A stretch of 46,647 nucleotides of DNA. It comes from Escherichia phage phiSTEC1575-Stx2k. The notes below the pieces were generated by a model. The model did no database searches. It was not told the origin of the DNA and worked only from the letters and a program-made list of their open reading frames with translations. Of the stretch, positions 1 through 1,352 are shown piece by piece (the stretch's first letter is position 1; each line of letters opens with the position of its first letter). Made by a program: the position numbers and the translations under genes. The stretch is from sequence record OQ243220.1; one strand, given 5' to 3'.

Positions 1-122
1 ATAGGATGTATCGTTTTTGAAAAACAATTGGTTATGTGTTTTGTGGGAGCCTATTGGGAACCTATCAAAAGATTTTTTGTCATAAACAGTGTGAGATGTA
101 AAACACTGTGATGGTAGCTTTG

Positions 123-150
123 TTGACATCGCAACGTCTGCAGGTATAAT
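123..150 (+). promoter_or_regulatory. Candidate sigma70 promoter (TTGACA-16 nt-TATAAT) reading toward the Panacea-like gene
   Basis: Exact consensus -35 TTGACA at 123-128 and -10 TATAAT at 145-150 with a 16-nt spacer. Confidence 0.5.
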
Positions 151-166
151 TCGCCACCAATTTGTA

Positions 167-186
167 ACCTGTGTATATGTACAGTT
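167..186. promoter_or_regulatory. LexA (SOS) box-like operator CTGT-N8-ACAG; weaker copies at 192-207 and 273-288
   Basis: acCTGTgtatatgtACAGtt matches the E. coli SOS box pattern and lies just downstream of the -10; CTGG-N8-ACAG and CTGT-N8-TCAG variants follow. Confidence 0.45.
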
Positions 187-307
187 GTTTACTGGTTATA
201 AACACAGTGATTTGCTCTTGCAATCTTCCAAAATTTTTTTGTTCGTGCTAGGTTGAGATAACAGTGATGATACTGTTTGCACATTCAGTGTAATGAGGAG
301 GGTGGTT

Positions 308-781
308 ATGTACAGCCCGGTACAAATAGCCAATAAATTCATAACGTTGGGAAACCAACATCATAATCCTCTGACCCACATGCAACTGCAGAAGCTTACT
401 TATATTGCCCATGGTTACTATTTAGCATTAACAGGTAAGCCTTTGCTCAACGAATGTGTCTCTGCGTGGAAGTACGGTCCGGTTATTCCCGGAATGTACG
501 ATGCTTTCAAAGATTATGGGAATAAGCCTGTTACGAATGTAGCAGTAGCTCCTTTTGGTGGCATTGTTACTATGGATCCGCAAGCAGAGAGCATTATAGG
601 GGCTGTTTATAAATTTTACGGCTCGAAAAATGGAATTGAGTTATCAACTCTAACTCATATGCCAGGTACGCCTTGGTCACAAACTTATAATGGTATTGGC
701 TCGTCAATCATCCCAGATGATGCGATCAAGACTTATTATCATGATTTATTGAATAACCGACAGCAATGTCAGGGCCTCTGA
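308..781 (+). CDS. Panacea (DUF4065, SocA/GepA-like) domain protein, putative antitoxin
   Basis: ORF 293-781; ATG at 308 follows GAGGAGG (295-301). Motifs such as LQKLxYxAxG...AWxYGPVxPxxY fit my recollection of DUF4065; unverified without an HMM search. Confidence 0.55.
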   Translation: MYSPVQIANKFITLGNQHHNPLTHMQLQKLTYIAHGYYLALTGKPLLNECVSAWKYGPVIPGMYDAFKDYGNKPVTNVAVAPFGGIVTMDPQAESIIGAVYKFYGSKNGIELSTLTHMPGTPWSQTYNGIGSSIIPDDAIKTYYHDLLNNRQQCQGL

Positions 782-803
782 AAAAGTAATATTCAGGGAT
801 GAC

Positions 804-1352
804 ATGTCTCGCAATTCAGATATCTATAAACTTATCGGAGCGGCTGCAGGTGTTGAAAATGGTCGCTCTGAAGCATCCTTAAACTATACTGACAGTCAAG
901 AACAGGTTTTTAAATCTGCATTTGAGCCGTCTAATCATGAGAGCGATGATGATTCTTCTTCAGAAAATAAAGCTATTCTGGAGGAAGAAGAGTTTGGTTC
1001 TAATACAGGTGCATTGCATGAGTTTATGCAGCAGCACAGAATGGACAGTCTTCAAGCTCAGCTTGATATGCTCAAATCACAAGTACGCGATAAGATAGCT
1101 GACGCAACTGGTAAAGAAATAGACAATGAACTTCGGACAAAAATGGCATCATTCACGGTTTGTTTTATGTCGTGGTGGTGCTTATTTGTAGCCGTAATGT
1201 TTGTATCGTTTCTTATTGCTCATGAAGGAAAGCCTCCAGTTGAAGCAATCGTTGCATTACTAGGTACAAGTACAATTAGCATTGTTGGTTTGGTTGGCTT
1301 CGTTGTTAGTGGATTGTTCAAATCAAGAAAAGATGGCGATAAAGAAAAATAA
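804..1352 (+). CDS. Membrane protein with acidic N-terminal domain and two C-terminal TM helices; putative toxin/effector partner
   Basis: ORF with AGGGA RBS; acidic, Ser/Asp/Glu-rich N-terminus, predicted coiled coil, then two hydrophobic helices and a basic tail; 22 bp downstream of the Panacea-like gene. Confidence 0.55.
   Translation: MSRNSDIYKLIGAAAGVENGRSEASLNYTDSQEQVFKSAFEPSNHESDDDSSSENKAILEEEEFGSNTGALHEFMQQHRMDSLQAQLDMLKSQVRDKIADATGKEIDNELRTKMASFTVCFMSWWCLFVAVMFVSFLIAHEGKPPVEAIVALLGTSTISIVGLVGFVVSGLFKSRKDGDKEK

Follow-up and report, generated by a model that had tools for sequence, protein, structure and literature searches.

At one end of the genome of Escherichia phage phiSTEC1575-Stx2k (OQ243220.1; 46,647 nucleotides, all of which were analysed and are called the window here) lie two genes which, as judged from their sequences, are an allele of PanAT_Esc.col, a published toxin–antitoxin pair consisting of the antitoxin PanA and the membrane toxin PanT of cluster T3. 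We propose that this published-type allele is prophage cargo, that the panA-panT operon is repressed by the host LexA and induced in the SOS response, and that the pair likely serves phage-versus-phage competition or abortive infection, or kills cells in which induction fails; we put the probability of this reading at about 0.7. The toxin–antitoxin pair itself adds nothing new. The module must be regarded as already known, since the system has been published together with its antitoxin, target and toxicity (PMC8832971), and the novelty implied in a first-pass annotation of this DNA, which was made from the letters alone, does not stand. What appears to be unreported is the control of panAT by the SOS response, and we consider the predicted array of LexA-type operators and the prophage-slot context to be modest new leads.

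Kurata et al. (bioRxiv 10.1101/2021.05.07.442387; PNAS 2022, PMC8832971) validated nine PanAT pairs, among them the pair WP_000287252.1 / WP_000019185.1 of a Shiga toxin-producing Escherichia coli (STEC) O31, whose mode of action is given as 'Membrane' in their Table 1. In their Dataset S1 this pair has the order A|T, a gap of 22, a toxin of cluster T3 and a PanA marked 'noNTD'. The window shares the locus type, the gene order and the 22-nt gap, and the two co-directional open reading frames (ORFs) are those which the first-pass annotation had drawn (Table 1). Their products are identical to the published ones at 153 of 157 positions for PanA (97.5%) and at 172 of 182 for PanT (94.5%). The relation to the published pair was established through STEC1588, which carries the same two accessions in its RefSeq annotation, in the same dusA slot, and in which the promoter and the three LexA boxes are also found upstream. 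Two peptides encoded by the control primers of the published synthetic genes, FGGIV and FVVSGL, both occur in the window proteins, and in PhiR47_1 (PV340566.1), 96.5% identical over positions 1-1400, the genes are annotated as 'PanA antitoxin' and 'PanT toxin'. The E. coli PanT was toxic and growth was rescued by co-expressed PanA; transcription, translation and replication were shut down indiscriminately, the toxin inserted into the inner membrane and caused strong depolarisation as reported by DiSC3(5), and the entry of SYTOX Green was read as the formation of large pores (PMC8832971). The first-pass annotation was thus correct in taking the two genes for a toxin and its antitoxin, which had been shown experimentally already for an allele as close as this one.

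The sequence analysis of the two proteins agrees with this assignment. PanA has a single Pfam match, to SocA_Panacea (PF13274; 66.2 bits with a cutoff of 25.7, E=6.2e-18, residues 27-123), and the Panacea (DUF4065) domain that had been recognised in it by eye is thereby borne out. For PanT no Pfam family scored above the cutoff. The first-pass annotation had been unable to name a family for this protein, which holds for Pfam but not for the PanT classification, where it belongs to cluster T3. Searches of the sequences in the PDB with PanA and PanT gave nothing meaningful, and a profile search of genome contigs with the alignment of PanT yielded just two remote loci, neither of them informative. 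As far as these comparisons go, the module is an allele of PanAT_Esc.col and not an equivalog of SocAB, a catalogued defence system or a holin. The first 115 residues of PanT have a net charge of -11, hydrophobic segments follow at about 116-139 and 149-172, and the protein ends in the basic tail KSRKDGDKEK; transmembrane (TM) and structure predictions agree with the architecture described beforehand, that is, an acidic N-terminal half, two hydrophobic helices and a basic tail. In an AlphaFold2 model made with 23 homologues, helices are predicted at 53-66, 68-139 and 146-176, the long helix continuing into TM1 and the separate one forming TM2, at moderate confidence (the mean pLDDT, the model's per-residue confidence score, was only 61.8). 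The N-terminal half is highly variable among PanT homologues, and the segment IDNxLRxxMA...F.FM..WC.FVA and TM2 (ALLGTSTISIVGLVGFVVSGLFK) are near-invariant. Among the E. coli alleles themselves TM1 varies at residues 120, 124 and 130-134, with a reciprocal C120W/W124C swap and other changes, and there are more variable sites per nucleotide in panT (0.078) than in panA (0.044).

The surroundings of the pair identify it as prophage cargo. The native, truncated 5' fragment of dusA stops at window position 2, a tyrosine integrase gene (45359-46456, minus strand) lies at the far end and the genes stx2A (319 aa) and stx2B (89 aa), both intact, are found at 17831-19071; these features show the window to be an Stx2-converting prophage that is integrated in dusA. 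The first-pass annotation had placed the pair at the integrase end of the genome, which is true of the circular phage only: in the prophage the two genes lie directly at attL in dusA, with int at the other end. Window positions 1-1400 are 100% identical in STEC309 and other STEC chromosomes, and a match to these 1400 nt was found in 87 of 5426 complete E. coli genomes (79 of them with at least 80% query coverage), always in a single chromosomal copy. AST240 (NZ_AP043633.1, L021 2564-3725) shares the dusA arm (window 3-63) and xis with the window, but the slot between them holds a different Panacea gene (193 aa) and an overlapping 115-aa ORF, with no LexA box at that cassette. Since an alternative cassette stands between the same flanks, the region from about 64 to 1385 of the window is exchangeable, and the slot hosts alternative PanA-based pairs.

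What, then, would switch such an operon on? Downstream of the promoter named in the first-pass annotation, the sole perfect one in the promoter scan, follow three LexA-type boxes; the LexA box and two weaker copies that had been pointed out in this leader were all recovered with a weight matrix (Table 1). The matrix was derived from 29 E. coli SOS boxes, which themselves score 13.3-27.6 bits, a range that includes all three panA boxes, and sites of at least 17 bits were counted as strong. In Markov simulations 0.02 such sites were expected in the 46.6-kb window and 6 were observed; for 244 nt of the local composition 0.0012 were expected and 3 were observed upstream of panA. By chance about 0.0075 sites of 20 bits or more would occur per window, the next-best site in the window has 15.0 bits, and the plain pattern CTGT-N8-ACAG was counted 6 times where 0.49 matches would be expected. 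The two sites ahead of the dinI-like gene (45049-45297, minus strand, at the far end of the window) are an independent positive control, because they were not used for the matrix.

The boxes are also conserved. Among eight aligned E. coli alleles, which have 91 variable columns in 1400 nt, the boxes change only at their outermost positions 186 and 191, and the stretch 258-307 is invariant; all three boxes are present in 12 of the 12 E. coli-type loci from IMG/VR that have upstream DNA. The homology with Enterobacter hormaechei, whose PanT is 64% identical, begins upstream at the -35 element. There the promoter reads TTGACT-16-TATAAT and box 1 is kept at 21.7 bits with a diverged spacer; box 2 is without its left half, and box 3 is broken by a 6-nt insertion. 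Salmonella, K. quasipneumoniae, E. mori and the IMG/VR contig L061 have a strong box (17.7-22.9 bits) at the position of box 3, which lies 33-38 nt before the ATG in the first three and, in L061, right in front of the conserved MYSP start codon. In these four the CTGT and ACAG halves are conserved, the spacers differ and the remaining upstream region is unrelated to that of the window. In 19 of 20 distant viral loci panA is preceded by one or two strong boxes, at about 186-900 nt from the start of its longest ORF, and followed by none. In the P2-like loci L076-L079 a promoter overlapped by a LexA site (e.g. TTGAAG-17-TATACT) is found immediately behind gpA, facing panAT, and no tum or dinI ORF could be recognised between the two; in K. 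pneumoniae L008 a co-directional dinI gene with two boxes stands directly 5' of the module. Control of panAT by DNA damage through the predicted boxes is thus supported in silico by their scores, by the chance statistics and by conservation across genera. PanAT_Esc.col has been characterised only from artificial promoters, and its locus was scored 'NotPhage' with regulation not discussed (PMC8832971), whereas the window locus is prophage cargo with predicted LexA operators; the conservation of the operator array across genera suggests what the natural 'on' signal of PanAT may be.

Homologues of PanT with 35-66% identity are found in Klebsiella, Salmonella, Enterobacter, Providencia, Pantoea, Serratia and Cronobacter. 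In every homologue examined panA lies directly 5' of panT, and the pairs occupy at least five different prophage contexts. Many are in the cargo hotspot between gpA and the portal gene of P2-type phages, with a reverse transcriptase, KAP NTPase or DUF4145 protein as neighbour; another lies next to type I restriction–modification genes behind a Q-like antiterminator and one is in a tail-gene region. Judging by these neighbours, the company of panAT is a typical accessory or defence-island context, which lends contextual support to a role in abortive infection or defence.

We hypothesize that the module works as follows. The very strong promoter would be held off by host LexA at up to three operators in the 150-nt leader and, because PanA has no DNA-binding domain, LexA probably replaces the usual autorepression by the antitoxin. 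DNA damage, the signal that also induces this Stx prophage with its S24-type cI, would lead to cleavage of LexA, and panA-panT would then be transcribed into a single bicistronic mRNA up to the terminator behind panT. PanA, a stand-alone Panacea domain, would neutralise PanT by binding directly to its cytosolic N-terminal or juxtamembrane region, and PanT, acting via its two conserved C-terminal TM helices, would be held inactive until PanA is lost or triggered. The most likely role would be phage-versus-phage competition, abortive infection or killing where induction fails; this is the least supported step of the scheme.

LexA-repressed toxins which depolarise the inner membrane are familiar from the E. 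coli chromosome in tisB/istR-1, dinQ/agrB and hokE, type I systems whose small peptides are silenced by antisense RNA. The likeness to TisB, DinQ and HokE is a conceptual one, a membrane toxin under the control of LexA, which for the window would rest on predicted boxes; the window toxin differs from them in being a 182-aa protein with a protein antitoxin and in being borne by a prophage. Prophage genes with host LexA boxes are likewise well known, such as dinI homologues and tum of phage 186 (PMC7556043), and many relatives have panAT immediately behind dinI or behind a gpA-proximal LexA promoter. The gene products are different, and the boxes of the window lie in the leader of the panAT operon itself. 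Here panAT rides on Stx2-converting phages, and it is their induction by this SOS signal that leads to the release of Shiga toxin. A damage-induced pore-former could therefore influence the outcome of induction, if our proposal is true. Could one go further and see in host LexA the dedicated switch of the pore-forming PanAT family, so that the pair is made only upon SOS induction and, in Stx2 and P2-like prophages, determines what becomes of damaged or induced cells, killing those that abort induction or are superinfected and possibly altering the timing of lysis and Shiga-toxin release? We regard this wider claim as speculative, and it probably goes too far.

Several points weigh against LexA control and against the assumed function, and they are best taken together. 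The array of boxes begins 17 nt after the -10 element; all three lie downstream of it, at about +10 to +30, +33 to +52 and +114 to +133 of a transcription start placed near 157, and none overlaps the -35 or the -10. The matrix was compiled informally from 29 boxes of the literature, which is a caveat to its scores. K. pneumoniae L008, L014 and L015 lack a box close to panA. In the P2-like loci the upstream box may belong to a neighbouring tum/dinI unit, in which case these loci would not be independent, and they are the weaker evidence because the association could come from the hotspot position and not from selection for panAT. The terms 'LexA' and 'SOS' are absent from both Panacea papers (PMC8832971, PMC10440598), and full-text literature searches gave no paper linking LexA or SOS to Panacea systems and none on LexA binding to, or damage induction of, the operon. 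In addition to 4 substitutions in PanA, the window differs from the published pair by 10 in PanT, three of them in TM1 (C120W, W124C, V131G), and the PanA–PanT complexes obtained by pull-down are those of five other pairs and not of the E. coli pair (PMC8832971). PADLOC models gave no significant match for PanA or PanT, which speaks against a defence role. Is it possible that the pair is a genuine PanAT whose LexA-like boxes are simply unused, the operon being constitutive and controlled at the protein level only, as in classical type II systems? The location of the sites downstream of the promoter core would accord with this, and so would those close and distant homologues that have no box nearby (L008, L014, L015). 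However, three boxes lie within 125 bp where 0.0012 would be expected, half-sites have been kept across four genera as their spacers diverged, and the only comparable sites in the 46.6 kb are those of dinI and cI, so we think it quite unlikely that the boxes are idle.

Other explanations accept the module and differ in what it does. It may be that panAT is a maintenance or addiction device of the prophage, made at SOS-triggered excision and killing cells which lose the phage genome or abort induction. The cassette immediately adjoins attL and xis, its apparent SOS timing would be that of excision, and such a role is the classical one for toxin–antitoxin systems on mobile elements (PMC8832971, introduction). 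Nevertheless, homologues occur at many other places in prophages and in hotspots of the defence type, which makes addiction an unlikely main function in our view. The two TM helices and charged C-terminal tail of PanT, the large pores formed by the published allele (PMC8832971) and an expression that would coincide with induction would instead fit a PanT that assists lysis in the manner of a holin, or excludes superinfecting phages, in the lytic cycle and is inhibited by PanA. We consider this very improbable, as PanT matches no holin family in Pfam or PHROG and is not beside a lysin gene, the prophage has its own holin and endolysin elsewhere (those annotated in the related prophage of STEC309 are far from the panAT end), and sister phages carry an unrelated Panacea pair in place of the cassette. 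Lastly, PanA might resemble SocA of Caulobacter, from the type VI system SocAB, and act as an adaptor that hands the toxin to a protease to be degraded, rather than inhibit it by binding. The antitoxins share the Panacea/DUF4065 fold family, and PanA gives a partial match to the NCBIfam SocA_antitoxin equivalog. This match reaches only 99.7 bits with a cutoff of 190, the partner is a two-TM protein and not SocB, and the ClpXP-adaptor mechanism of SocAB is probably different from that of PanAT. Moreover, direct PanA–PanT complexes have been published for the five pairs mentioned (PMC8832971), and in PanT(T12/D11):PanA of B. choladocola (formerly B. apis) a stand-alone Panacea domain neutralises the toxin directly (Ernits et al., PNAS 2023, PMC10440598). 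That pair resembles ours in its stand-alone antitoxin and in a compositionally similar membrane toxin; it differs in host and context, there is no detectable sequence clustering with T3, and its interface was tested for that pair alone (PMC10440598). An adaptor mechanism therefore seems to us hardly probable, and we retain LexA-repressed, SOS-induced expression of a PanAT pair with direct neutralisation as the preferred reading.

Table 1. Coordinates of the panAT cassette, its surroundings and the LexA-type sites of the window
Feature	Position	Strand	Basis or remark
attL-side phage arm, common to different dusA-integrated prophages	1-63	.	same 63 nt after truncated dusA in AST240
Swappable cargo cassette (promoter, operators, panA, panT, terminator), att arm to xis	about 64-1385	+	AST240 comparison
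Palindrome ACAGTG-N12-CACTGT	86-109	.	sequence; arms resemble outward-facing LexA half-sites
Consensus sigma-70 promoter TTGACA-16 nt-TATAAT	123-150	+	12/12 score; -35 and -10 conserved in E. hormaechei L010
GC-rich discriminator TCGCCACC, directly 3' of -10	151-158	+	sequence
LexA box 1 ACCTGTGTATATGTACAGTT	167-186	.	21.0 bits; CTGT-N8-ACAG exact at 169-184
LexA box 2 TACTGGTTATAAACACAGTG	190-209	.	20.8 bits; CTGG-N8-ACAG; 23 bp centre-to-centre from box 1
Palindrome ATAACAGTGATGATACTGTTT	258-278	.	invariant in E. coli alleles, conserved in E. hormaechei; arms like outward-facing LexA half-sites
LexA box 3 TACTGTTTGCACATTCAGTG	271-290	.	17.6 bits; CTGT-N8-TCAG; ends 4 nt before panA Shine-Dalgarno
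Shine-Dalgarno GAGGAGGG of panA	294-301	+	sequence; conserved in E. hormaechei
panA: stand-alone Panacea antitoxin, 157 aa, without DNA-binding domain	308-781	+	Pfam; identity to WP_000287252.1; Dataset S1 'noNTD'
panT: cluster T3 membrane toxin, 182 aa, acidic N-terminal region, long helix, two TM helices	804-1352	+	identity to WP_000019185.1; PHROG 13343
Bidirectional intrinsic terminator, boundary of panT and convergent xis	1348-1373	.	terminator scan
Excisionase (PrtN/AlpA-like), right border of the slot, outside the module	1386-1658	-	phrog_1300 excisionase
LexA-type site TACTGTTTTTACATACAGTA inside cI-like S24 repressor gene (7261-7953, minus)	7725-7744	.	25.3 bits, strongest in window
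LexA-type site 5' of dinI-like gene	45311-45330	.	20.6 bits
LexA-type site 5' of dinI-like gene	45339-45358	.	20.8 bits

Some further features of the leader deserve mention. The start of panA at ATG 308 is favoured over that at ATG 293 because the Shine-Dalgarno sequence sits 6 nt 5' of the former. No second promoter was found in the promoter scan between boxes 2 and 3. With its 16-bp spacer and the GC-rich discriminator behind TATAAT, the panAT promoter presumably resembles rrnB P1. A motif TATA(A/C)T-(T/C)CGC(G/C)CGC recurs 100-165 nt 5' of panA in distant relatives (L010, L018, L075-L079). Together, the spacer, the discriminator and the recurring motif hint at a transcription that might be sensitive to ppGpp and DksA. 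The outer palindrome noted in the first-pass annotation is present; by the weight matrix it contains no full LexA box, and it lies outside the upstream region shared with the Enterobacter homologue. This palindrome and the one ahead of box 3 may be decayed LexA boxes or the site of another factor. An RNA element in the panA leader is not supported, because Rfam gave no match to it and the predicted fold of the 5' untranslated region was not significant (z=-0.8).

Elsewhere in the window, the tandem LexA boxes of the dinI-like gene (45311-45358) stand immediately 5' of it and abut the integrase stop codon. Could the first 63 nt be native dusA? This was rejected, since the dusA fragment does not extend beyond position 2 and AST240 has these 63 nt ahead of its different cassette. 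The early region of the window is 99% identical to that of the Stx2k prophage of STEC309, and the structural genes differ. Among the relatives, the panAT hotspots of L015-L020 (Providencia, Pantoea, Serratia, Enterobacter and E. coli) contain reverse transcriptase, KAP NTPase, DUF4145 and type I restriction–modification subunit genes. In K. quasipneumoniae L026-L028 two LexA boxes of 25-28 bits (positions 1626 and 3990) flank the module ahead of minus-strand genes of 79 aa, and the module there sits within what is, by prediction, a cluster of SOS-controlled small genes.

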